Assembly: GCA_038143065.1 (NCBI GenBank) | Contig: JAYQLI010000042.1 | Coordinates: 29,114 to 93,113 of the forward strand | Reading direction: 5' to 3' | From: Rhodospirillales bacterium | Lineage (GTDB): Bacteria > Pseudomonadota > Alphaproteobacteria > Bin95 | Length of the DNA: 64,000 bases | Part shown: in pieces, positions 8,106-28,701 of the stretch | Layout of the letters: each line of letters opens with the position of its first letter | How positions within the stretch are numbered: position 1 is the stretch's first letter | The notes under the pieces: model-generated | Databases searched by the model: none | Seen by the model: only the letters and a program-made list of their open reading frames with translations | What the model was told of the DNA's origin: nothing | Made by a program: the position numbers and the translations under genes

Positions 8106-8339
8106 ACGACGCCCCTTCTACAGAAACTAACAATTTACGTTATTTAGGATACTGTTCTAATTACGGAAACTTTCCAAGACTTACGTTACGCAGTGTTTTT
8201 CCAACGCCGCTGAGACTTCTGCCTTACTGATCGAATGACGTCCTCAAAATCGCTATTGGTTTTATATCTTTCAAAGTCTCTCCCATTTGAGGAAGATTGA
8301 CCATTGTTATACAAATTTGCGAACGTGCCAAACTATCAG

Positions 8340-8837
8340 AAACTCTTTCTGACTTCCATTAAGAAGTTCTATTGATGGGCAGTCTATTTAAACGATTATA
8401 GATCTTATACATTTTCTAGGTTCTGATAATGGAAAAGGCCTTTGATTTCCTTCTGAGTGAAACTGTATTTTCCTATTCCTAAACTCTTTGATTTTCGGTT
8501 TGAGTGACCTTCTCCCAATTCAATTAAACGATCAGATTGTTTCTGTTCCACTATCCGTTTTACGTCTTTTATTATTGTGGAAACGTTTTCGTTTAGTGGA
8601 ATACTTAGGGTTATTGTTTTTGTGAGTTAGAGATCTTTGAAACCTCTTTCACCATCACTTCTTCAAACAGATATTTGTGATTTTTTCCGCAATCATCAAA
8701 CTTAATGTTTCGTAACGTTTCCCCACTCTTCATAGAAGTCTTTTGATTGTTTGCAGGTTCTCAGAATATTGCAGATCTGAATGACAAATCTGAAGACACT
8801 CAAACCACAATCTAATGTGTTGTTTTTTCGATCTCAT
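8340..8837 (-). CDS. Hypothetical island protein (frameshifted)
   Basis: MRSKKQHIRLWFECLQICHSD...FYEEWGNV coding-like segment. Confidence 0.35.
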
Positions 8838-8859
8838 CGAAATGTTGATTATTACCAGG

Positions 8860-11143: not shown

Positions 11144-11739
11144 TCAGATGAGATTTACTACCTCATTTTGGCTCTCACTATCACTTTCAATATATCGCTG
11201 TAGTTTGAAGCGATGAATGGCCAACCATCATCTGAATCCTCTAATGACCCACCCACAACAGAGATCTTCTTTGATGTTTCCGTTATGAAAGTTCTTCGAC
11301 CACTGTGCGATGAGCATCCAATCAAACCTAATCTGTCATACCAACGTTGAAACATATTAACGATTGCTTGTGGAGCTAGTGCTCTTTTGAGCGTTCGGTT
11401 CGAATGATTGATGATGTTGACGGATTAAAAATTTTGGAGTTTGATGCTCTTTTCCAACAATTTAATTAAGTTAAGCTTCAGGTCTTTGTTCAGTGGAACC
11501 ACCTGCCCCATTCCCTTTGGATGATGATTAGGAAGGTTTAGATAATCACCAACTGATCCGTCAGAATTCATCACCATTGCCCATTTGAGGTGAGCTATCT
11601 CTTTAGCTCGCAATCCAGCTTTAACGGAAAAGTAGAAGATTGTTTGATCTCTGAGACCATATCGGTTGGTTAGAAGGTACTCGCTTATCATTTTGACCTG
11701 AACACGGCTTAGTGTCTTTGCTTGTTTCCCAAGACCCAT
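11144..11739 (-). CDS. Small (~200 aa) catalytic-domain-only tyrosine recombinase, FimB/FimE-like architecture (frameshifted)
   Basis: RDQTIFYFSVKAGLRAKEIAHLKW and SSHSGRRTFIT, then a GH..Y region; no N-terminal arm/core-binding domain. Confidence 0.85.
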
Positions 11740-11839
11740 ATTTGATCCTCAACTGATTATGTTTGATTGATAATCAGACAATCCAGCATCAGTTAATTTG
11801 AGACAACGTTAGGATAGATAAATAAGTTAAATGATATAT

Positions 11840-12322
11840 CAATAGGTTAAATGAACTGATGATAGAAAATGTAATTCTATAATCAGTCTTGCTTCGAAAA
11901 GTCGTTTGTTCACGGCTTCGATTATATCAACACCGAATTCATCTGCATGCTGGCGTATCACTTGTTCGTAAGAAATGTCTAAACTGTCAAATTCTTCTAG
12001 ATGTTTAAAACCCAACGTTTCTGGTTTCCGAACTAAATTTTCTAAAAATGTTTTAACAGTTAGCTCTTCAACCGCACGTCTCGTGTATCTAGCGTAGGTC
12101 TTTTCTTATTCTTTACAGTTAGAAATTGTTTAAATGCCACTTGTTTCCAAAATGAATATTCGATGGCGTTTCCGCATTCATCGAACGACAAAATAGTTCT
12201 CTTTCTTTTCGTCAATTCGACCACCAGTTCTTCGGATATTTTTATGCCACTTCCTATATGCATCAATTTGTTTAAGTTCTTTAAAGTTACGTATCTGTTT
12301 AATTGGATCAACTTCGACCATA
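11840..12322 (-). CDS. Hypothetical protein (frameshifted) between sites S1 and S4
   Basis: ORF 12060-12311 plus continuation ENLVRKPETLGFKHLEEFDSLDISYEQVIRQHADEFGVDIIEAVNKRL. Confidence 0.5.
11854..11888 (+). repeat. Palindromic recombination-like site S1: AACTGATGATAGAAAATGTAATTCTATAATCAGTC
   Basis: 13-bp arms (12/13 match) with 7-nt spacer; shares AACTGA and CTATAATCAGTC with S2 and S3. Confidence 0.8.
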
Positions 12323-12431
12323 ATTAATGCCTCAAGCTAGCTTTCACCTTAAAGATGACTGAGGCTCCTCAGACAGCAAGTAGGCTCATGCTGAAAGTTC
12401 TGCACTCCTCGTAATCCGCCTGATATGTGCT

Positions 12432-12466
12432 CTATCTTTATAGAATGGCATTATTCCGGAGCAGTT
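12432..12466 (-). repeat. Degenerate site S4 (reverse complement AACTGCTCCGGAATAATGCCATTCTATAAAGATAG)
   Basis: Same spacing as S1, 21/35 identity by eye, with AACTG and TTCTATAA retained. Confidence 0.4.
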
Positions 12467-12669
12467 CAGCTTAATTTATGGAATGTCGGATATCTTAAAT
12501 TAGTTTATTGAAAAATTTTGCATCGGTAAATTAGATATTGGTTTAAACAGCTGTTTTTAAAATAGCCTACCGGTACCTGATCTAGTTTTTTTCTGACCAG
12601 ACACAAGCTAATTGGTTATAAGTTCGCTCATCAGCTGGTGAATGGTTCAGGTATAATCTGAACAGATGC

Positions 12670-13797
12670 TAAAAATTAAACCGTTTTCCAAAATACTCGT
12701 TTTGAAACTTAGCCCATTCTTGATAAATCAGGCTGCTTGGTACTGGATCCATATCTAACGAAAGGAACTGGCTCATTCCCACTATACTTACAATAGATTG
12801 GCTGGTTTGATTTTTTACATTTTACAATACAAATGGTCTTATCAACAATCTCAAGAAAATGTATCTACTAAGCTGGCTGCTGTTGTGCCACAATTCATTA
12901 ATTTGGTTCATGATCAAAAGTGAGTATTTATCTCTGTCTTTAAAATCATCACTTTTAATTCCCACGATCTCTTTATCTTGATCTCTTACACCAATAATGA
13001 GATCGCCTGAATTTGTATTCAAAAACCCACATACTTCTTTAATTGCCGCCCGCCTTAATTCCTTTGAAATTTGTCCTGTTCACACATCCCGAGAAAACGA
13101 TTGCTTAAATTCTGTGGTCTCGGATTCTTCCGAGGTCTAGGTAATGCTTTATTTCAAGAGGCCGACAAAGCTTTCGGTACGCATTAGTCGCTCTACCCTG
13201 CGTACCATCATTGAAAGGATTTAATTTTCATCATTTTTTATTTTTAGCCGTTCTATTGTTCAGCATTAATTGCAAACGTAATGGAACGAGTTAATTTATG
13301 TCCGATTAGCTGTTGGAACGTTATAGCTCCTTCAATAGAACCAGAAAGTTCAGCTAGATGTTTAGAGTCTTGCAATTCACCAGAAACATTAAAATGATAT
13401 TCATGCTCAAGATCACGCCCAGGCTGACCATCTCGATCAATTGAGAAACTTAAACTCTGCTCCGATAGTTTCCTTCAAAACTGACTGCAAATTAGGGCTC
13501 AAATATACAACCCTGCTTTCGCCTTCTTCTGCTCTTCAAATTCAATGAAAGCTTCTAAATGATCACAGAGCAAAACCCAAGGGACGCTGTCCACAAAACG
13601 GGCATAATGGAAGGACATCATTAAATGGGGCTAAATTTACAACATTACTCATCGATAGCATCCAATTTAAGCCTGTTCCCAATTTTGCGCTAAAAGACCC
13701 TATATCTCAATAATAAATCATCTTCAAAACAACTAAATGACAAAATGAGGTGCATTGATGACATTATAGGGGAACTATAATCGATTGACCACGACAT
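12670..13797 (-). CDS. Protein with C-terminal Schlafen/AlbA_2 domain and uncharacterised N-terminal domain (frameshifted, approximate ends)
   Basis: EESETTEFKQSF...IKEVCGF.NTNSGDLIIGVRDQDKEIVGI. Confidence 0.75.
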
Positions 13798-13819
13798 TCG
13801 CTTTTTGTCCAACTGTTTA

Positions 13820-14800
13820 AGATCTTGATTTAGTTCCGCGCACTTTCTAAGTTTTTTGTGTGAGCCACAGATACAAGCTTTATCAAGGAAACTTTGAGGC
13901 ATCGCACCACCAGCATCTTTTTCGTATTATTTTTCTTAAAATGTTTAGATTGTTGGCAGTGTGATTATTAAGTTCTTCATTTTTCGCAACCATTAATAAA
14001 ATCGCTTTTCTAATAATATCCTCATGTTTTTTATATATCAAAGAATACGGTTCTAAATTTGAGTAGGGACGGCCCCAGGACCAAATTTAACGATCCCATC
14101 CAACTCAAGAAAGAATTCCAATTCATATCGGTCGATTCCTGCAATTTTTTTGATCTCAAATTGAGTATTGTTCAGGAATGGAAAAGAATTTGGATGAATG
14201 AATTCGCTTAATAAATCATAAAATTCTTCAGACCTTCTACATTGCGCTCAAGTTTCTTTTAATTTGGTCAAAATATTTGAGTTAGACAACATACCGTCTC
14301 TATCACGTACTGCCTGACCACCAGCTAATTTTCCGTGGATCTAAGCTTGATGGCAGTACCATGGGCATCTTTGGATCATAAAAAGAATTTAATGTTCCTA
14401 ATCCAAACCATATCCTCCAAGTTAGAGGATTCTTCACACATTTCGTCTCATATTCCGTTAAAGTGCTTAATTTTTTCAGAACCATCATTGAATGCCGCTA
14501 CGGTCTCTAACAGATTGAGTATGAAAATATAAAGATTTATGTTCCAAATTTTCAAATGAACTCATTATTTGAACAAAGGGGCATCCTTTACATCTAAGCA
14601 CATCGTATAATTGAACGCTTCGATTATACGAATACATGAAAAAATAGGACCTTGTGGTTCGATATATATGTAATTTCTTTTGCTCAATAGAGAGGCAGAC
14701 TTTGGTGGCTCTGTGTACGCCTTAGGTAAGTGGAGATTACTAGGCTTTAACCTACACAGTCGCTCTAATCTTTTTACCTCTAGTTCAAACATTTCATCAA
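13820..14800 (-). CDS. HEPN-like (DUF5677-like) protein with probable C-terminal SEC-C motif (frameshifted, approximate ends)
   Basis: NILTKLKKL..FYDLLSEFIHPNS and ACICGSHKKLRKC. Confidence 0.5.
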
Positions 14801-14843
14801 ACCCAAAACCTCTTAATTGGACAAAACTTACTGTATCAAGGCC

Positions 14844-14877
14844 AACTGACCATAGAAATTATATTCTATAATCAGTC
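14844..14877 (+). repeat. Palindromic recombination-like site S2: AACTGACCATAGAAATTATATTCTATAATCAGTC
   Basis: 13-bp arms with 6-nt spacer, 3 bp from the hsdR stop codon. Confidence 0.8.
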
Positions 14878-14880
14878 ATA

Positions 14881-17800
14881 TTATGCGGCCATTCAAACTC
14901 AGATACCACTTCCTGCCTGCCTTAAGACCATCTCAACTGCATCTTAGCCTTATCAGGGGGATATTGATATCTTCTCAGAAGGGTTCTGATCAAGACACGC
15001 AGTTTAGCCCGCACACTATCACGTACAGCCCAATCCACAGTAAGATTATCTCGTAGCTTGGCAGCTATCTCTCTGGCCATCTCGACAAGGACTTCTTCCC
15101 CATGACTTCTTGGGCAGACTCATTTTTGGCTAGAGCATCATAGAATGCTTCTTCCTCATCATTCATATTGTGACTTTCACGCCTACAAGATCCTCTTGAA
15201 ATTGTTTAGCCATAGCGATGAGTTCCTCAATAACCTGCGCAGCCTCAATAGCCCTGTTGGCATACTTGCCTAGAGATGCCTGAAGCAAGTCACTGAATTT
15301 TCGTTGCTTAACCACGTTGGTTCTAAACTTAGACTTAACCTCGTCTTTTATAAGCCTCTGCAACAGTTCAACAGCGAGGTTCTTATGGGGCATCTTCATG
15401 ACCTCAGATAAAAACTCATCAGACAAGATAGAGATATCAGGGTTTCAAGGCCCCAAGCTTGAAAATATCTGATACGCCTTCACCTACTACGGCTTGAGAA
15501 ACAAGTTGGCGTAACTCATAGTTCACATCCTTTTTAGGTCTATCCTCCATCGCTTCCTTTAATCAGCGGCGCTCTAACTGCCTGATGGAATGCAACTTCT
15601 GGCGATAACTCTAGTGCTTCATCCAATGTACCACACAGAGCAAAGGCCTTTGGTCATTTTGCAGCACAGTATCTGCATACCGGCGTTTACCGTCATCCTG
15701 CGCTAGTACACAGTCCATGCATTCAGGTATCAGTGTAAGGGCTTTTGTTTTGAATTCGCTCCAATCAACCGTGTGGAGAAAGTCTCCGGCAATCTGGATC
15801 TTTTCTTTAAGGATGCGCAGGGCTTCACTAGAGTCGATAGTGGGGCGTCCTTTACCCTTGGCGGCGCTATAGGTTGCGAGTGCTTCTTTTAGCTGCGGTG
15901 CAATGCCGATGTAATCTACAGACCAAGCCCCAGGTTTATTTTTAAACACTCGGTTAACACGAGCAATTGCCTGTGCCAGGTTGGCCCCCTGCATCGGTTT
16001 GTCGATATACATTGTTGACAGGCAAGGAGCATCAAATCCGGTCAGCCCATATCTCTGACAATTACTATTTTAAGCGCATCATCAGGATCTTTTACCCGCT
16101 TTTCCAAATCCTTCTTCTGCGACTTATTAGTATGGTGCGGCTGGAATAGGCCTTATCTGAAGCAGAGGCTGTCATTACTACTTTGACTGTACCGCCCATG
16201 TGATCATCTGAATGCCAATCAGGTCGAAGTTTAATAATTTGATCGTAGAGACGCACACAAATGTCACGGGACATTGCCACAACCATAGCTTTACCAGGCT
16301 GCGTTTGGCTTCTGGTTTCGTAGTGCTGGATTAGATCTTCGGCTATCTCCTGCAAGCGAGCCTCAGTGCCAACTATCGCCTCTAATGCCGACCATTGCGA
16401 CTTAGCTTTCTCTTTATCACGATCATCCTCCACCTCATCATCGAGCAGTTCTTCTACTTCTGCATCGATTTGGCAAAGCGTCTTGTTTTGAGGTTGATCT
16501 TGGCTAATCGGGACTCGTAGTAGATCGGCACTGTGGCCCCATCATCCACCGCTGCTGAATGTCATAGATCGACACATAATTACCGAATACAGATTGGGTA
16601 TCTCGGTCATCTTGCGATATCGGAGTGCCGGTAAAGGCTAGGAACGTAGCATTCGGTAAAGCATCTCTTAGCGATTTAGCTAGTCCATATTTAATTGTTC
16701 CAGTTTGACCGTCGATCTTAGCTTTTAAAGCCATACTGCGTGCGATGTGCCTCATCTGCAATAACCACGACATTGTGGCGATCGATAGCACTGGGAACCT
16801 ATCTTCATCTGCATCAAGTCCGAACTTTTGTATGGTTGTGAAGATTATGCCACCAGACGGCCGGTTCATCAGATGCTCTCGGAGTTCCGCCCTCGAGTTA
16901 GCCTGCTTTGGTGTTTCACCCAACAGTTCGCCAGCGCCAGCAAATACGCCGAACAGTTGCCCATCAAGATCTGACGATCTGTAACCATTACCAATGTGGG
17001 GGTTTTCTAGGCGAGGCTCTGCTATCAAGCGTCCTGCAAGGCATGCCATTTCAATGCTCTTGCCCGCTCCCTGCGTGTGCCAGACAACGCCACCTTTTTG
17101 GAGCCCTCTATGCCAGATGCTGTAACAACGCTCTCCACAGCAGCCTGTACGGCGTGGAACTGATGATAGCCTGCGATCTTTTTGATAACCGTCTTATCGT
17201 CCTCAAACAGGCAGAAATACCGCAGATAGCTAAGGAACACCTCCTTGTTAAAGAGGCCCTTGATAAGGGTTTCCAGTTCACGGTGTTGTCCTAATGGATC
17301 CACTTCAACGCCGTCGATGGTTCGCCAGCGCATAAAGCGTTCTTCATTAGCGGAGAGTGATCTAATCGGGCAAATATACCGTCAGATATCACCATGCAGG
17401 TGTTGTAGTTAAACAGGTCTGGAATGTCGTTCTTGTAGGTCTGTAGTTAGTTATAGGCCGCCCAAATATCAGCTTGTTCGTCTGCGGCATTCTTCAGTTC
17501 CAGAACTGATAGAGGCAAGCCATTTACAAAGACTAAGACGTCAGGCCTACGGTTATGCTTCTGACCATGTATTGTGAACTGGTTGACCACCAGCCATTCG
17601 TTATTGTCAGGATTGTCGAAATCGATGACTTTTAGCTGCTTACCAATCTCCTGATCACCCTCGTGATAGGTCACCTTAACGCCTTTGGTCAGCCACGAAT
17701 GAACCTGTCGGTTGGCAGACATCAGGGCTGGAATGTTGGGTTAGTAAGCTGAGAAAGTGCTGTGGTAATCGCTGTTTGAGGAATATCAGGATTGATGCGA

Positions 17801-17968
17801 GTAAGAGCGGATAGCAGCCGATCTTTCAGTACAACCGATACATAATCAGACCGTTCAGGTGTTTCACCATCAGGGTGCGATATCGTAGCCACAGATATAA
17901 TCGTAACCAAGGTCTTTGAACCATTCGATACTTTGCAGTTCAACTTGGTCTTCGGTTACCAAAGCCAT
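14881..17968 (-). CDS. hsdR: Type I restriction enzyme R subunit (frameshifted)
   Basis: [73 protein letters not shown]. Confidence 0.95.
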
Positions 17969-19180
17969 CAGATACCAGCCTCTTCAAGGAACTTCTCTGC
18001 ATCAGGTATGCGGAGTTCACTGAGATGAGTTTGGAAGCAGTGTGTCTCTGAGTTTGGATAATACTTCAATTTCTGCCGCTGCAGTTAATATGCAAGTCTA
18101 TGATAGGATTTATAATCTCTGTCCAAATTTCTGTTTTAGGTCAGAAGCAGGCATTACGACTTTTATGCTTTTAATACTGCTCGCTGAAACATTCCCTTGA
18201 GCGGAACCAGTGCCAAAGGTTTTCAACTTCTTTTTTAAAACTTGCCCGTCTTCATACAACTTCACCATGAATGCGTAATCGCTCGTTGCGTGGGCAACAA
18301 GCCTACCGACCCGCTGGTTGAGGTAAGGCAACTCAACAACCTTTGGGAACCAATAGCCCTACTTCTCCAAGATCCGGTCAACCAATAAGCGTCCCCAGAT
18401 GATAAACGAAACCTTTGAATTTCAGAAATCGTCATGACTATCTACTTGACTGGACGAAAAACATCTACCAACATAGGTTTGACATTCCCTATCCTAACAA
18501 CAGGACTCCTTCTTCGCACCAGTCTTTGCTCTTGAAAGCATAGCCATTCTGAATATCGGCAAGTTTGAAGGTAGATAAAGTCCACCCATTCGGTATCTCC
18601 CCAATCTCCGAGATCACCAACTCATCAGGGAACAGATCACTGATTTCGGCGGAAGACCTGTGGGCGACCCTCTGCCTTTGCTCGTACAGGATCAAAGTCC
18701 ACAAACCATGACTTAAAAGATCGTCTTGGCGATCTCTCTCAAGGGTTTGGTTCATCTTTTGGTTGAGTTCGATTTTATCGTCTAGCGTGCCGAGGATGTG
18801 GGCGATTGCTTTTGGTCAGCAAAACTTCGTTCGGGTACTTCAAGAGATTTAAGACTTGTTTGATTGATCAGGGGTGCCGGAACCACCTCTCAACGAATGC
18901 AAATCCTTCGTCAACAATAAGTAGTAACAATAGCGAGCATCAGCACCAGTCTTTGCATTGCCTTTGATTGCATCTAACCCAACACTGCTCTGAACTGTAA
19001 TGCACATCGAACACAGTAAGACCCAACACGACCTATTATTATAGTTTCAGCAGGATTACTGAATTCATCGCAGTGACCAATAACTCCGTTGGAACCAAAC
19101 ACATTGAACGTTCCATGCCTTCATCAGCAGGGCGTTTTTCCGTTTTCAAAGATAAGGTAAGTATCTATAGAATAATTGCA
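17968..19180 (-). CDS. hsdS: Type I R-M specificity subunit (frameshifted)
   Basis: [39 protein letters not shown] conserved regions. Confidence 0.9.
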
Positions 19181-20712
19181 CTAAAGATCCTCAAACGTAC
19201 AAGATAGATTTGAAACAATTTTTTGGTCTAATTCAGAAGACGCATCCTGCAAGAATGCAGTGACTTCTGTTAAATTTTTTATCGTTTTCGTAAACGTTTC
19301 TGGATGTTTCGTTTGTTCCCCACATACCTTCCCGGCGTCAGGACAAAACCATTCTTCTCGATCTCTTCAAGACGCTGACTTGCAATCCCCGCAACGTCCT
19401 CGTAACCTTCACCGGTTTTCCACGACTGAACCGTCTGATGGATCTTTGCGATGTCCTTGTTTGTGAACACTCTAAGAACCCGGCTCTGCATAGTTCCCAA
19501 CTGTCGAGCATCGATAAACAACGTTCTCACCTCGACGATCCTGCCCATGATCTTGTCGTTTGTGAAAAACCAAAGACAGACTGGAATCTGTGTATTGAGA
19601 AACAACTGACCGGTAATGCGACCATAACCTCGACCACGTCACCTCGCACCATCGCATTGCCTCTGTATCTGTCTTCACCGCCAGTGTTGGAACTCATCGA
19701 ACCATTAGCCAGTACAACCCCTGCCTGACCGGGACAACTTCCACAACATGTGTTGTAGCCAAGCATAGTTGGTATTGCCTACAGGGGCCTACCAAACTTC
19801 CAGCGGGTCACTCTCGTACTCTCCTCCCCAGTCTGAAATGTTGAACGAGTGGATTAGCCATGATGTAATCAAACTTCAGATCTGGGAATTGATCTCGTCC
19901 AAAGGTATCACCAGGCTCTTTCCGAGATCAGCAGCAAACCACGAAATGCCAAGTTTCATTGCTGCTAATCGCCATGTAGTGGGATTACTTTCCTGCCCAT
20001 AGGATGGAGACATCATCCACACGACCGCCATGTGCCTTTACGAATTCTTCACTCTGAACAAACATGCCTCCTGAACCACAGCAGGGACTTGGTAGACACG
20101 GCCTGAGTTAGGAGAAAGGACAGCAACAAGGGTCTTCACGACATGAGTTGGCGTGTAGAACTGACTGCCTTCTTGCCTTCTGCAGAAGCAAATTGGCCAA
20201 TGAAGTATTCGTTACTTCGCCCAGAAGATCGGAGGATCCGTATTTATCAGCAAACCCAATTGTAGAGATGAGATCGATGAGTTCACCTAGAACACCCTGA
20301 CCAAGCTGCGCACGACCGAACCGTTTGTCTAACTTACCTCGCAAAGAGGTGTTCTCGTTCTCAATAGCGGTCATAGCTGCATCAACAAGCGAGCCAATGT
20401 CTGGTTGCTTAGCTTTTGCCCTTAACGCCTCCCAGCGAGCTTCCAGGAACCCAGAATACGTTGTCTTGAACATAATAGTCTCGTTCTTCTAGTTCCTCCT
20501 GGTACTCGGAAGGGTCCTCACTGATGAACAATTCAGAGGCTGGATTTGAAACAGATTGTCTTATCTTTTCCTGCTGCTTAACAAAAGTATCAGATATATA
20601 TTTGAGGAATATGAGGCCTAGACGATATGCTTGTATTCGGCAGCATCCATCTTTGAGCCTGGTGCTTGTCAGCAGTTTTCCATAGGGTTTGTTTGAAATC
20701 TTGTTGGGACAT
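19181..20712 (-). CDS. hsdM: Type I R-M methyltransferase subunit (frameshifted)
   Basis: LIFLKYISD, CCGSGGMFVQSE, GVVLANGSMSSN, FLNTQIPVCLWF, VLTPGRYVG. Confidence 0.95.
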
Positions 20713-20726
20713 AAAATTGCCGCTCC

Positions 20727-20760
20727 GACTGATTATAGTTTTTACAAACATTAGTCAGTT
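20727..20760 (-). repeat. Recombination-like site S3, inverted relative to S1 and S2 (reverse complement AACTGACTAATGTTTGTAAAAACTATAATCAGTC)
   Basis: Perfect CTATAATCAGTC and AACTGA ends; 14 bp upstream of the hsdM ATG; contains TATAAT facing hsdM. Confidence 0.8.
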
Positions 20761-21004
20761 CCGACACATTTGCAATCACGCAACATCTCAAAAATTAGGC
20801 ATCCCAGCACAGTTCACTTCATCGACTTCCAACCTCTTAAGCAAAACAGTATCTGAAGAACCCACACCAAATTCTCAAGCCGTTAATGTATGATATAAGC
20901 TTATTCTGGTTGAGCGACCACAGTAATAATTAAAGGATCCCAGTGTGCTGTGATCCAATCTGCAGCAGTATTAAAACTGATTTGGGTGGCTAAGGAGACT
21001 ATGC

Positions 21005-21400
21005 TCAGCGAAGCTCAAAGCAGGTAGAATTAACCCAATCAATCGAGGACGCCAAATCGTTCTTTGTCCTCTTCTTTAAACAATATTCCAGCCAACCAAC
21101 TATTCTTTGAAGATTGTCTGGTATTTCAAAATGCAATTCGCTGTAACCAAACTTTGTTTTCTGCCAACATGATTTAACCATATGCATAAAGTTCAGTTCA
21201 ATATCGTCAGGCTTTTCCATGATGATATGCAAATGATGTCGGTGCGTATGATCACATTCTCTAACGACAAACATAGATGCTTGGCATCCTATCGATAGCA
21301 GCAACATCGTTTGTCCAACAGAGATTTCAGAGCTAAATGTCTTTACTGCTTGGAAGCTGGCTTGCTCCATTTTTGAATGAAGCCCCGATCAACAGCGGCA
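21005..21400 (-). CDS. HUH-motif (rolling-circle Rep-like) protein
   Basis: E.DHTHRHHLHIIME, CWQK and GWLEYCLK (HUH plus candidate catalytic Tyr). Confidence 0.55.
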
Positions 21401-26373: not shown

Positions 26374-27926
26374 GTGACGACACCCAATGAAAATGACATC
26401 ATCGATCTTTCGGATCGGCGGCGGCATCAGCGGCTGCGGTATCGCGCGCGATGCGGCCGGGCGCGCTTGCGTGTTGAGCTTCTGCAGAAATGAACGACTT
26501 GCCGCGGCAACCTCATCGCTTCAACCAAATTGTTTCACGGTGGCCTGCGATATCTTGAATATTGCAGAACTGCGACTGGTGCGCGAGGCGCTGGTGGAGC
26601 GTGAATCCTCGTTCAAACCATGCCTATTTCTTGGCCCATGCGCTTTGTGCTCTATCACAAAGACATGATTTGCGGAGCAACACACCGACGTCAAACTTCT
26701 CCAACGCCCTATGCCCTGGATGAAGGGCGTCCAACTGGCTCATTCGCCTCGGGCTGTTCCTATACGACAGGCTTGGTGGAAGAAAAATATTGCCGCCAAC
26801 ACGGGCGATTGATTTGCGCCATGGTCAGAAGGCGCGCCTTTGAAAGACCGTTTTACAAAAACAGAATATTCTGATTACAGGTCGAGGACAGCCGTTTGTT
26901 GTATTAAATGCCTGCGATGCAGCAGCGCGCGGCGCGCATCACCACCGAACCAAAGTCACGATGGCCCAAGTGGTGGACGGCATTTGGCACGTAGACGCTG
27001 CAAAACCGACATAGCGCCGCGATTGTGCAGGCGCAGGTTTTTGGTCAACGCCGGAGACCCTGGGTTGAAAACCTTAATTTCGCAACACCACCCTGAACAC
27101 CAAGAAGGGTGCGTTTGGTGCCAGGCAGCCATCATAAATCCGACTTTACGATCATGACAAATGCTGTTTTTTCCAAGGAAGATGGTCGGATCATTTTCAC
27201 AATTCCCTGAAACTGATTTCACCTTTGATTGGCACAACGGATATTGATCATCCAGATCTTGTGGAAAAACCGGTCTGTAGCCCCGAAGAGCAAAGACTAT
27301 TTGCAGCTTGCCTCAACCTATCTCAAAAACAGCCGTCACCGCTGAAGACGTGGTGGCCACCTACTCGGAGTGCGACCGCTCTACAACGATGCGGCCAGCT
27401 CCCGCGATTGCAGCCGCCATCGAGACTGGTTATAAAGCTCGACAAAACTGCCGGAGCGCAATGTTAAACGTCTTTGGCGGGGGAGGAAAATTCCGACCTA
27501 CACCAAACTGGCAGAACAGGCCTTGCAGCAGATTTCAGACGACACCCCGCAGATAGGGCAAGCTTGGACCCGCAGGGGATAGTCTGCCCGGCGCAATTTT
27601 CCATGGGCGGGTGGATGATCTCATCCAGCAGCTGATCAAAAAATTCCCTTTTTGACGACGCCTTGGGCGAGAGCGATTAGTCAAAGCCTATGGGAAGGAC
27701 TTTTGATGTCTTGGGCGCAGCCACCGTTTCCACAGACTTGGGGAAGATTTTTGGGCCAGTTTGACGGCGCGCCAGTTGGCTGGTTGATGGACAATGAATT
27801 TCAACAGACCGCCGAAGACGTGATCTGGCACCACCAGTAAGTTAGGCTGGCTCACCGATGCGCAGATTGAGAGGTTGCAGAACTGGATGCAGCGCCGATT
27901 GGGCGCGCGTGGACCTAGCAACCAGT
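26374..27926 (+). CDS. glpD: Glycerol-3-phosphate dehydrogenase, copy 1 (many indels)
   Basis: IGGGISGCGIARDAAGR, LRLVREALVERE, IGTTD, LNVFGG, TAEDVIW. Confidence 0.85.
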
Positions 27927-28049
27927 AAGTTTGCGCGGCCAATCGCAGGGCCGTAAGCCCCTGCAAACATACACTTTTGATTTAATGTGCAAAGCAAGCA
28001 ATTGTTCAACGCAGTATTGAGCACGGCCCTTGTGTTTTGTGGGGTGATA

Positions 28050-28701
28050 TATCATTTTAGATTTACTGATTAAGACTCAACTCATTTCACTGCTCGTGTT
28101 CCTATGCAGCTGGACCTATATCGCTGCCGATCAGGTTGTGGATTTTCTGACGGTTGGCGTGAGCAGCGTTTTTCATTATTTTCTAGCAATGAATTTGAAC
28201 CAAGCGGCGAAACCCTGGTATCGGTTCGATGGGACCGTCTCAATGTTCTGGAGCCGCCTACCAGCCAGGCTCTGAAGTAGCGTAATCAGCGCGTTGGGAT
28301 TGGGAGGTCACGTCATCCGTGCCGCCCACAGGACCTGACACTCAAAGGCGGTGATGATCGAAATTTGTCAGTTTATTTTGTGTTCATGCCGGAGGCCTCA
28401 ATACCAGCGGCAAATGCAAAACTCAGATTTACTTGGCGATGACAGCGCCCGCATATTGATGTATGTTTGGGGGGGCAATCACATGCGCGGAGACATATTG
28501 CCAGCGCCCTATCTAAATGAGCTCGGCAGAATCATTTTGCGACCTGCCAGCACCGGCAGGCGGCGAACGGGTCAACCTAAGAACCGATTTCAACGCGCTT
28601 TGGCACAGACAACACGTCTCGTCGGCATTGCCATTTCAGCCGACAGTGATGACACCGATACACAGATCAGGGCAGGCGTCTCAATCGGATCAAGAACTTA
28701 G
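28050..28701 (+). CDS. DUF3047-like exported protein (approximate start)
   Basis: GGDDRNLSVYF, RILMYVWGG, LVGIAISADSDDT. Confidence 0.6.

Follow-up and report, generated by a model that had tools for sequence, protein, structure and literature searches.

Genes and sites of the locus

The window (the whole 64,000-nucleotide stretch of DNA from a Rhodospirillales bacterium that was analysed) contains a small tyrosine recombinase gene with palindromic sites and gene modules stacked upstream of it. Gene lengths are those found in relatives, among them a chromosomal copy (G245) and metagenome contigs (L042, L060):

11144..11739, minus strand: small tyrosine recombinase, catalytic domain only; 199 aa in intact relatives
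11740..11853, minus strand: upstream region of the recombinase; half-site-like motifs at about -56, -40 and -25 relative to the ATG
11854..11888, minus strand: S1 ('site A'), core site belonging to the recombinase, with an 11-nt centre between its arms
11883..12321, minus strand: cassette gene p148, frameshifted; its L042 and G245 counterparts have 148 aa
12432..12466, minus strand: S4, weak resemblance to a site, conserved upstream of p148
12669..13700, minus strand: Schlafen/AlbA_2 gene (PF04326) in its own cassette, 344 aa in L042 and G245, frameshifted
13753..13786, minus strand: S5, new degenerate site that separates the Schlafen cassette from cassette B; by alignment to relatives
13820..14792, minus strand: cassette B gene, SEC-C-motif/DUF5677-like (Atlas), 324 aa in L060 and G245, frameshifted
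14844..14877, minus strand: S2, adjoining the hsdR 3' end
14881..17968, minus strand: hsdR, 1031 aa in G245, over three frames here (tblastn)
17971..19180, minus strand: hsdS, approximate coordinates
19170..20712, minus strand: hsdM, 518 aa in G245, frameshifted, approximate 3' end
20727..20760, strand uncertain: S3, upstream of hsdM
20815..20915, minus strand: 3' remnant of p80, an 80-aa backbone gene
21008..21283, minus strand: 'block X', backbone gene, 158 aa in relatives; weak PF23343 match

All genes of this region, the recombinase included, carry frameshifts or stop codons in this assembly, as does the rest of the contig's gene content. The recombinase of the window, 79% identical to 199-aa proteins, is interrupted by a TAA in frame (11425-11427) and, towards its C-terminus, by two or more frameshifts, and its tblastn pieces fall in three frames. 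The size of about 200 aa that the first-pass annotation had given fits the intact relatives, which are abundant; premature stop codons are also present in three metagenome relatives. The window copy, disrupted in the assembly, may be active. The L042 orthologue matches PF00589 over residues 9-189 with 75.8 bits (cut-off 27.1), and the N-terminal piece of the window scores 20.2 bits, below that cut-off because the gene is broken. Residues R44, K75, H145, R148, H175 and Y184 do not vary among 10 relatives and align with those of XerD (chain 1a0p), the last catalytic histidine and the tyrosine lying, in the window copy, within the frameshifted stretch. The core-binding domain is absent, since residue 7 of the 199-aa protein aligns to XerD residue 108; simple tyrosine recombinases are described as being composed of a core-binding and a catalytic domain (PMC8138268). 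In the upstream region, arm-like matches were identified at about -56/-55 (window, L020, L021 and L024) and at -25 (L017, L025 and L032), and these half-sites are putative accessory or autoregulatory binding sites.

The cargo begins with p148, for which profile searches gave no family, followed by the Schlafen/AlbA_2 gene (PF04326 with E 2e-9 for the window piece and E 4e-20 for the L042 orthologue). The product of cassette B looks like SEC-C/DUF5677-type proteins, its closest Atlas clusters being SEC-C-bearing (score 0.95). This gene had been called HEPN and joined with Schlafen in one module; neither call was retained, as no Pfam family matches its 324-aa orthologues at E <= 0.01 or 0.001 and the two genes belong to two modules, split by the degenerate S5. 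The hsdM, hsdS and hsdR genes, frameshifted in the window, align with a type I restriction-modification (RM) operon of G245, whose orthologues contain the expected domains (N6_Mtase and HsdM_N; Methylase_S; HSDR_N, SWI2_SNF2 and T1RH-like_C, respectively), and the window diverges from G245 in the target-recognition parts of hsdS.

S1, S2 and S3 were all found at the positions first given for them, as were the distances of S2 from the hsdR stop codon (3 bp) and of S3 from the hsdM ATG (14 bp). The inverted arms around a spacer were also recovered, with refined dimensions: in place of arms of about 13 bp and a spacer of 6-7 nt, the arms have 11-12 nt (ACTGATnATAG and its complement) and lie on either side of a 10-nt centre, the whole site having 32-34 bp. 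The centre of S1 has 11 nt and that of all 69 relatives with a site has 10 nt; the extra base, located within a T run, is probably an assembly indel. The 12-mer CTATAATCAGTC is present in three copies in the window (about 0.10 expected; none of 100 shuffles reaches three), and neither this 12-mer nor the gapped two-arm pattern occurs outside S1-S3 in the whole genome of 4,633,825 bp (4.63 Mb). In five other genomes (4-9 Mb) the motif occurs once or twice each, as a single copy in four of the five. The motif is, thus, rare and not a genome-wide host operator, which had been raised as a possible refutation.

The individual sites differ in quality and in their relation to the genes. The distal arm of S1 contains the p148 stop codon. 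S3 has a perfect arm nearer hsdM and a degenerate far arm; its polarity, which can be read solely from that perfect arm and from a TTACA-like core of the centre, is uncertain, and, S1, S2 and S5 being co-oriented, the alternating orientation proposed initially is not borne out. S5 aligns with sites of L042 (3665-3697) and G245. S4 was not retained as a recombination site, because it scores under the 17-of-24 threshold and no homology breakpoint falls in it: the breakpoint of the window against L042 and G245 lies at 12400-12405, about 27 nt away, and S4 is conserved in L052 and L046 as part of the p148 upstream region.

Linkage of site and recombinase, and variation of the modules

Where metagenome loci extend 170 nt or more upstream, 69 of 75 carry the palindrome about 146 bp (-155..-120) before the recombinase start. 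In genomes of distant taxa, Bradyrhizobium, SAR116, Methylococcaceae and Magnetococcales among them, it was found at about 20 of 31 loci; shuffled controls gave no palindrome match in 324,253 nt. The recombinase paralogues of this genome (contigs C33, C8 and C47) have their own variant of the palindrome at the same position. This recurrence beside the gene, over hundreds of loci in all, indicates that site and enzyme form one unit, as had been suggested when the sites were attributed to the adjacent recombinase. In SAR116 and Magnetococcales loci, two co-oriented sites bracket the recombinase, in some cases together with a single cargo gene, and two loci (L011 and L012) differ in their cargo and are otherwise alike. 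Arrays with more than one extra site were found only in the window, G245, L042 and L060, which belong to one marine lineage; the other loci with long flanks have a solo site, as do most members of the family.

Within a common backbone, the interval between hsdR and the recombinase holds zero, one or at least three modules (G245, L042, L060 and L067). The window reads type I RM, S2, SEC-C-like gene, S5, Schlafen/AlbA_2 gene, p148, S1 and recombinase; G245, an intact chromosome on a 3.29-Mb contig, has the same order plus a helicase module. In L067, hsdR is followed by a site and the recombinase; in L060, by a site, cassette B, a site and the recombinase; and in L042, by a site, three other genes, a site, Schlafen, the helicase module, p148, a site and the recombinase. 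L042, L060 and L067 are short-read metagenome contigs, in which mis-joining at a repeat is possible in principle; G245 and the long-read-like window independently agree on four sites in the same order.

The variation of cargo between sites, which the first-pass annotation had predicted for related strains, is therefore observed, and in these four relatives the breakpoints fall inside the sites. S2-type sites have a constant left arm and centre, which stay with hsdR, and a right arm that changes with the following module; at S5-type sites the left arm varies with the preceding module, and centre and right arm are constant. At site A, each of two left-flank classes occurs with each of two right-arm classes, and of 53 alignments between relatives and the window, 36 stop within 11884-11897, the outer edge of S1. 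The backbone gene p80 directly abuts site A in many relatives, and the distance between p80 and the recombinase varies stepwise among relatives, from 389 nt to about 11.7 kb.

The sites had been described as lying at module borders; some junctions have no site. We noticed no recognisable site at the p80 end next to S3 or at the junctions of the 2.67-kb helicase module (G245 and L042), and no palindrome 3' of the recombinase stop codon, where at least 12 different contexts were found. These site-less junctions indicate that ordinary homologous recombination around a conserved anchor also shapes the region.

Interpretation of the array

We consider it reasonably probable that the locus is a self-encoded site-specific cassette array, neither integron nor Xer, with type I RM, SEC-C-like, Schlafen/AlbA_2 and p148 modules. 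Its unit would be a 199-aa catalytic-domain-only tyrosine recombinase, a cognate core site about 146 bp upstream and the nearer half-sites and, in the lineage of the window, extra copies of the core site would separate the gene modules stacked upstream of the recombinase. Circular modules with one site each would enter or leave the array through exchanges that the adjacent recombinase would catalyse where arm and centre of a site meet, so that each module would keep one arm per end and every junction would be a hybrid site. The proposal that the recombinase inserts, shuffles or inverts defence modules is supported insofar as cargo varies at the sites; inversion is unsupported. Neither circles nor inversions nor empty sites in a single population were seen, and none of the public sequencing runs contains this stretch. 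The centres of S1, S2, S3 and S5 are unlike one another, a difference that would keep a classical tyrosine recombinase from exchange among these sites, unless only one strand pair is exchanged.

More tentatively, the locus may represent a third, independent cassette platform, beside integrons and Xer/pdif, in which a catalytic-domain-only enzyme captures circular modules, entire defence operons included, at a site that precedes its gene and resembles attI. Differing centres could be tolerated by single strand-pair exchange at the centre edge followed by replication, and the recombinase with its site, which two sites bracket in SAR116 and Magnetococcales, could itself be a minimal mobile cassette. 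A literature search of incomplete coverage returned no description of this recombinase family or its arrays. If the cassette-array reading is right, a very small self-encoded recombinase and a simple 32-bp site would partly assemble the defence islands of abundant marine Alphaproteobacteria, an integron-like logic built from different parts. This would account for metagenome assemblies breaking in these regions, and the site and the 199-aa enzyme would offer both a searchable signature of exchangeable defence modules and a compact recombinase/site pair to study.

Another reading, which we regard as rather unlikely, takes recombinase and site A as a multimer/cointegrate-resolution (or integration) module of an episome-like element, the extra sites being scars of rare fusions between elements with similar sites, with no dedicated capture platform. 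TnpI/IRS, Cre/loxP and plasmid cer are resolution systems of this kind. The solo site as the usual state and a core site with half-sites by the gene start, a resolution-site layout that resembles TnpI/IRS, are consistent with it, as are the different island flanks of G245 and the window and the nature of the backbone: block X matches PF23343, a replication-associated protein family, with 26.9 bits, just below the cut-off of 27.8, and a protein-primed-type PolB is found among the backbone neighbours of relatives L069 and G363. However, zero, one and at least three modules at one place with hybrid sites imply more than one fusion; cassette B stands beside the recombinase in L060, yet three modules off in G245 and the window; in G245 the island is part of a chromosome; and a search of viral contigs for the recombinase family found none.

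It is very improbable that the palindromes are operators only, bound by the recombinase or another repressor, with the modules varying by homologous recombination. Site A and the half-sites do lie within the promoter region of the recombinase, and S3, 14 bp before hsdM, includes a TATAAT; S3 is kept in G245, and before a related hsdM of G363 there is just a CTATAAT-like element and no palindrome. Nevertheless, S2 is located 3 bp past a stop codon, S5 has unrelated genes on either side, arms reassort at breakpoints within the 32-bp sites, and promoter-like matches are not enriched, none of them covering the S3 equivalent. The least probable explanation, that the modules are transposon-like elements (with the arms as terminal inverted repeats and the enzyme elsewhere) or that the variation is metagenome mis-assembly at a repeat, draws on module ends that are mutually inverted repeats, by construction of the site, and on three informative relatives being short-read contigs, and conflicts with the roughly 10 nt always present between adjacent modules, the absence of any target duplication among the modules compared, the constant linkage of the motif to one enzyme only, the tyrosine recombinase, and the four sites shared, in order, by the single G245 contig and the window.

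Comparison with known systems

The recombinase had been termed FimB-like, which is apt for its size, FimB and FimE having about 200 aa and lacking the usual N-terminal DNA-binding domain, and not for its profile matches, which are Xer models; no FimB/FimE model is among its NCBIfam matches. FimB/FimE act by flipping a single promoter segment flanked by short inverted repeats; no inversion is evident at the locus. TnpI/IRS (Tn4430) and Cre/loxP-type systems resemble the locus in a palindromic core with recombinase-binding repeats between core and gene start and in the solo site as the common state. Their enzymes, in contrast, contain a core-binding domain and have about 280-340 aa, and these systems are not known to build arrays of cargo modules.

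Acinetobacter pdif modules (XerC/XerD) share with the locus short arm-spacer-arm sites that bound modules reassorting between replicons, and junctions that are hybrid sites. They differ in a strict alternation of site orientation, of which none was seen here, and the locus differs in a recombinase that is encoded beside the array and co-occurs with the site. The site sequence probably also differs from the dif consensus. Family scores agree with the earlier view that the system is neither integron nor Xer, as the recombinase remains far below the cut-offs of the XerC (TIGR02224, 57.8 bits against 335), XerD (TIGR02225, 53.5 against 330) and integron integrase (TIGR02249, 16.9 against 265) models.

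Integrons have in common with the locus a tyrosine recombinase gene with a primary site just upstream, stacked modules beyond that site, each ending in a palindromic site copy, defence genes among the cargo and non-identical site centres. The attC sites of integrons are long imperfect hairpins (57-141 bp) recombined as single strands, whereas those of the locus are short palindromes of the double-strand type (32-34 bp). Unlike in integrons, the enzyme has 199 aa and the catalytic domain only; the modules face the recombinase instead of pointing away, and a module can comprise an entire operon together with its own upstream region.

Sites upstream of a small tyrosine recombinase gene

The elements considered in the window are the following:

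11739 to 11147, minus strand: recombinase gene, with an in-frame TAA (translated through as X)
11854-11888: palindromic site S1
14844-14877: palindromic site S2, ending 3 bp past the hsdR stop
20727-20760: palindromic site S3, 14 bp upstream of the hsdM ATG
13753-13786: degenerate site S5, newly found
12432-12466: degenerate site S4 of the first-pass annotation

The sequences of S1, S2 and S3 are as the first-pass annotation described them. The refined anatomy of each is a pair of inverted arms of 11-12 nt around a centre of 10 nt (11 nt in S1, where an additional base lies within a T run; 10 nt in all relatives), and the centres differ among sites. The motif is rare: a 12-mer common to S1-S3 is present in three copies in the window vs about 0.10 expected (at least three copies in 0 of 100 shuffles) and absent elsewhere in the whole genome (4,633,825 bp, 52 contigs), and a genome search with a gapped two-arm pattern returned the same three places only. 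S4 is not supported as a site: it scores under threshold and is conserved as part of the region upstream of the module gene p148, and homology to two related islands, L042 and G245, breaks at a distance of about 27 nt from it. Alternating orientation of the sites, also proposed, is not established, since the inverted polarity of S3 is weakly grounded.

Read through its stop, the recombinase aligns at 79% identity, over 87% of its length, with many 199-aa proteins, and the protein search gave E <= 0.001 for 7964 of 8000 scored candidates. The L042 orthologue matches PF00589 over residues 9-189 (75.8 bits, cut-off 27.1), and the catalytic R, K, H, R, H and Y residues, invariant in 10 relatives, align with those of XerD. 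Residue 7 of the recombinase pairs with XerD residue 108, so that the core-binding domain is missing. Natural pseudogenes exist in this family, since premature in-frame stops occur after 153 or 133 codons in three metagenome contigs (L111, L112 and L114), where the remainder of the gene is still readable. No relatives were detected in viral contigs with the patterns used.

Loci were retrieved through the recombinase protein and the palindrome was then sought upstream. It is linked to the gene, lying at -155..-120 in 69 of the 75 metagenome loci having enough upstream DNA and also present in about 20 of 31 genome loci (Bradyrhizobium chromosomes, SAR116 single-cell genomes, Methylococcaceae and Magnetococcales records included), with 0 matches in shuffled controls; the co-occurrence of motif and recombinase anticipated by the first-pass annotation is thus observed as a palindrome fixed upstream of the gene in relatives. 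The arms drift by lineage (L101-L114 bear a ACTGAGTATAG-type arm), and recombinase paralogues on three other contigs of the window's genome (C33, C8 and C47) have a CTCATAGAA-type palindrome in the same upstream place. These paralogues (C33 about 85.0-85.8 kb, C8 about 10.4-11.2 kb and C47 about 40.9-41.7 kb) show 32-44% identity, and the C33 copy has p232-like and 401-aa-like neighbours. Half-sites resembling an arm also recur, at about -56 and -25. Five other genomes (4-9 Mb) hold one site copy (four genomes) or two (one genome), which, together with the site-gene linkage, refutes a host operator found genome-wide. In the genome with two copies, the second copy precedes an ORF of 198 aa. A sigma-70 promoter at S3 was rejected, since the promoter scan gave no match at its equivalent; promoter-like matches were not enriched overall (22 found vs 27 expected).

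Automatic palindrome picking in seven further Rhodobacteraceae loci returned mostly irrelevant GC-rich palindromes, with clear solo sites only in L148 and L149. In genome G044, two sites enclosing 30 kb were considered as the limits of one element, and this was rejected: a 198-aa ORF starts 134 nt past the second site, which probably marks a second recombinase unit.

Module variation and breakpoints

In G245, a genome of the Rhodobacteraceae family, the genes of the island are intact, on a 3.29-Mb contig. The gene and site orders compared are:

Window: type I RM, S2, cassette B, S5, Schlafen/AlbA_2, p148, S1, recombinase
G245: p80, 56 bp, S3-type site, hsdM-hsdS-hsdR, S2-type site, 324-aa gene (cassette B), S5-type site, Schlafen/AlbA_2, 207-aa + 622-aa NERD-UvrD module (opposite strand), p148, site A (the S1-type site upstream of the recombinase gene), recombinase
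L060: hsdR, site, cassette B, site, recombinase
L067: hsdR, site, recombinase

The window order is that of G245 minus the 2.67-kb helicase module, and in L042 cassette B is replaced by three genes, which encode a 244-aa DksA/TraR zinc-finger protein and proteins of 83 and 174 aa. The 324-aa product of cassette B is SEC-C-like and the Schlafen/AlbA_2 protein has 344 aa; both, like the NERD-UvrD helicase pair, are candidates for anti-phage activity. The cargo between sites therefore varies among the window, G245, L042, L060 and L067, as the first-pass annotation had expected, and the breaks fall inside sites. S2-type sites share one left arm and centre in five of five sequences, with a right arm that depends on the next module; in the S5-type site, the left arm varies with the preceding module, and the centre and right arm stay constant alongside the Schlafen gene. 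L060 combines this cassette-B left arm with the centre and right arm that belong to the recombinase. For site A, two left-flank classes (p80 end, p148 end) and two centre/right-arm classes were found, in all four combinations. We scored by end point 53 relative alignments running through the recombinase promoter:

End points of relative alignments running through the recombinase promoter
Ending at the S1 outer edge: 36/53
Extending past S1, all sharing p148: 4/53
Running out of contig: 5/53
Stopping earlier: 8/53

The backbone gene p80 lies at discrete distances from the recombinase, between 389 nt and about 11.7 kb. In two SAR116 loci (L011 and L012), site A is the exact start of the conserved block; the next gene past the recombinase differs, encoding a 341-aa DUF6994 protein in one locus and a protein of 143 aa in its counterpart, and homology returns for 283 bp, ending at a second, co-oriented site. 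In Magnetococcales loci, a second site directly follows the recombinase gene.

Not every junction bears a site. The p80-S3 junction retains merely 2-4 nt of an arm, and no sites were found at insertions after p80 in other loci, none flanking the helicase module and no palindrome in the variable DNA directly after the recombinase stop. In genome G363, a related RM operon, convergent with the recombinase and lacking flanking palindromes, is situated past a PolB gene, and its hsdM retains only a CTATAAT-like element. Multi-site arrays were found in the window's lineage only; the other long loci and the two clear Rhodobacteraceae cases have a solo site.

Public reads gave no run with more than 0.13 of sampled words. 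Contigs of four seawater runs, compared with the window at 85% likeness, contained these joints:

11889 to 20833: run X7, side 22 nt, 17 other letters between
12400 to 14852: runs X2 and X3, side 25 nt
13772 to 14865: run X2

Their short sides lie within the repeated site, so that the partner module is not assignable, and they are taken as no more than weak hints.

Other differences among the islands were noticed. The hsdS target-recognition regions of the window (17971-19180) and G245 (L136 10137-11339) are only 23-45% identical, which indicates that RM specificity differs between otherwise similar islands; the last 16 hsdS residues are 88% identical and hsdR pieces 74-100%. At 20915-20922, the window lacks about 595 bp present in G245 (local 27691-28285) between backbone block X and the p80 end; in L050, L069 and L110 this interval holds most of p80 and a short ORF, ribbon-helix-helix-like by eye. 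The backbone genes p80, block X and p232 are oriented oppositely to the recombinase in some loci (L097; L012; L096; L083, L088, L092, L098 and L117), a hint of inversions that have an end close to the recombinase unit. A 232-aa protein without family match (window 8164-8849; L042 9961-10656) recurs beside the recombinase in 19 loci, distant taxa included, in either orientation.

State and surroundings of the sequence

The longest ORF in the 64-kb window is at most 361 aa. Each gene aligns piecewise, in all three frames, to intact orthologues (hsdR in nine pieces), and ORFs of at least 300 aa number 4.0 per 10 kb on the main contig C35, 0.64 on C42 (the window's contig), 0.44 on C50 and 0 on C30; these three small contigs thus have very few long ORFs, whereas the 2.86-Mb main contig looks normal. 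An alternative genetic code was rejected, as table 4 restores no long ORFs and the genes are broken by changes of frame rather than by a single recoded stop. Single-base indels distinguish environmental contigs from the window at 12 places (e.g., 11385, present in contigs of all four seawater runs, and 20829), which fits assembly indel errors. On these grounds, most gene breaks are taken to be assembly errors on low-coverage contigs, with long reads of low coverage as the suspected source, and some may be pseudogenes.

The first ~24.5 kb of the window lie within a low-GC stretch of about 37 kb (36-47%, mostly 40-44%; window -12,000 to +24,500, C42 about 17-54 kb), with flanks of 47-59% GC, mostly above 50%, and a main contig of 46.9%. 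The closest relatives of the C42 island are marine Rhodobacteraceae-type sequences, and C42 may belong to another organism that is present in the assembly at low coverage. Near-identical DNA was found neither in plasmid or E. coli collections nor, except for short RM-gene matches, in 40 relatives of the window's genome, and the window contains no tRNA gene as integration target. The intact G245 island, whose flanks differ from those of C42, also holds an alpha-2-macroglobulin/PBP1c pair, an exonuclease, a GmrSD_C/HNH nuclease, helicases and a Ser/Thr kinase with PP2C phosphatase.

Mechanism and comparison with known systems

We propose that the recombinase binds the arms, one dimer per site, and that strand exchange could take place at either edge of the centre; the centre would then stay with either partner, matching the observed sites. 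Modules would enter and leave as circles, and the half-sites near the start codon may be accessory sites or serve autoregulation. The main rival, which we regard as less likely, holds that the unit serves resolution or integration and that rare fusions left the extra sites behind as scars; it differs from the array reading chiefly in how often exchange happens and to what end, with little difference in the chemistry.

In some relatives, the surroundings of the recombinase resemble pipolins: a 900-aa DNA_pol_B_2 protein stands tail-to-tail with the recombinase, followed by a type I RM operon (L069 4656-7358; L142 11410-14112). This protein lies beside the recombinase in L069 and G363, and the window's genome gave no PolB match, so that a pipolin reading was rejected for the window. 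The part of the pipolin paper covered (PMC11551731) mentions neither this recombinase type nor the cassettes. Simple tyrosine recombinases are defined, in the excerpt of PMC8138268 covered, by the core-binding domain, which the present recombinase lacks in the XerD alignment. The literature searched gave no description of this recombinase family with its arrays; supplementary files may list such clusters. The earlier proposal that the system is neither integron nor Xer is supported at the level of family models, as the recombinase scores far under all cut-offs of the XerC, XerD and integron-integrase models. Among known systems, its layout is most like that of integrons and its site type most like that of pdif modules.
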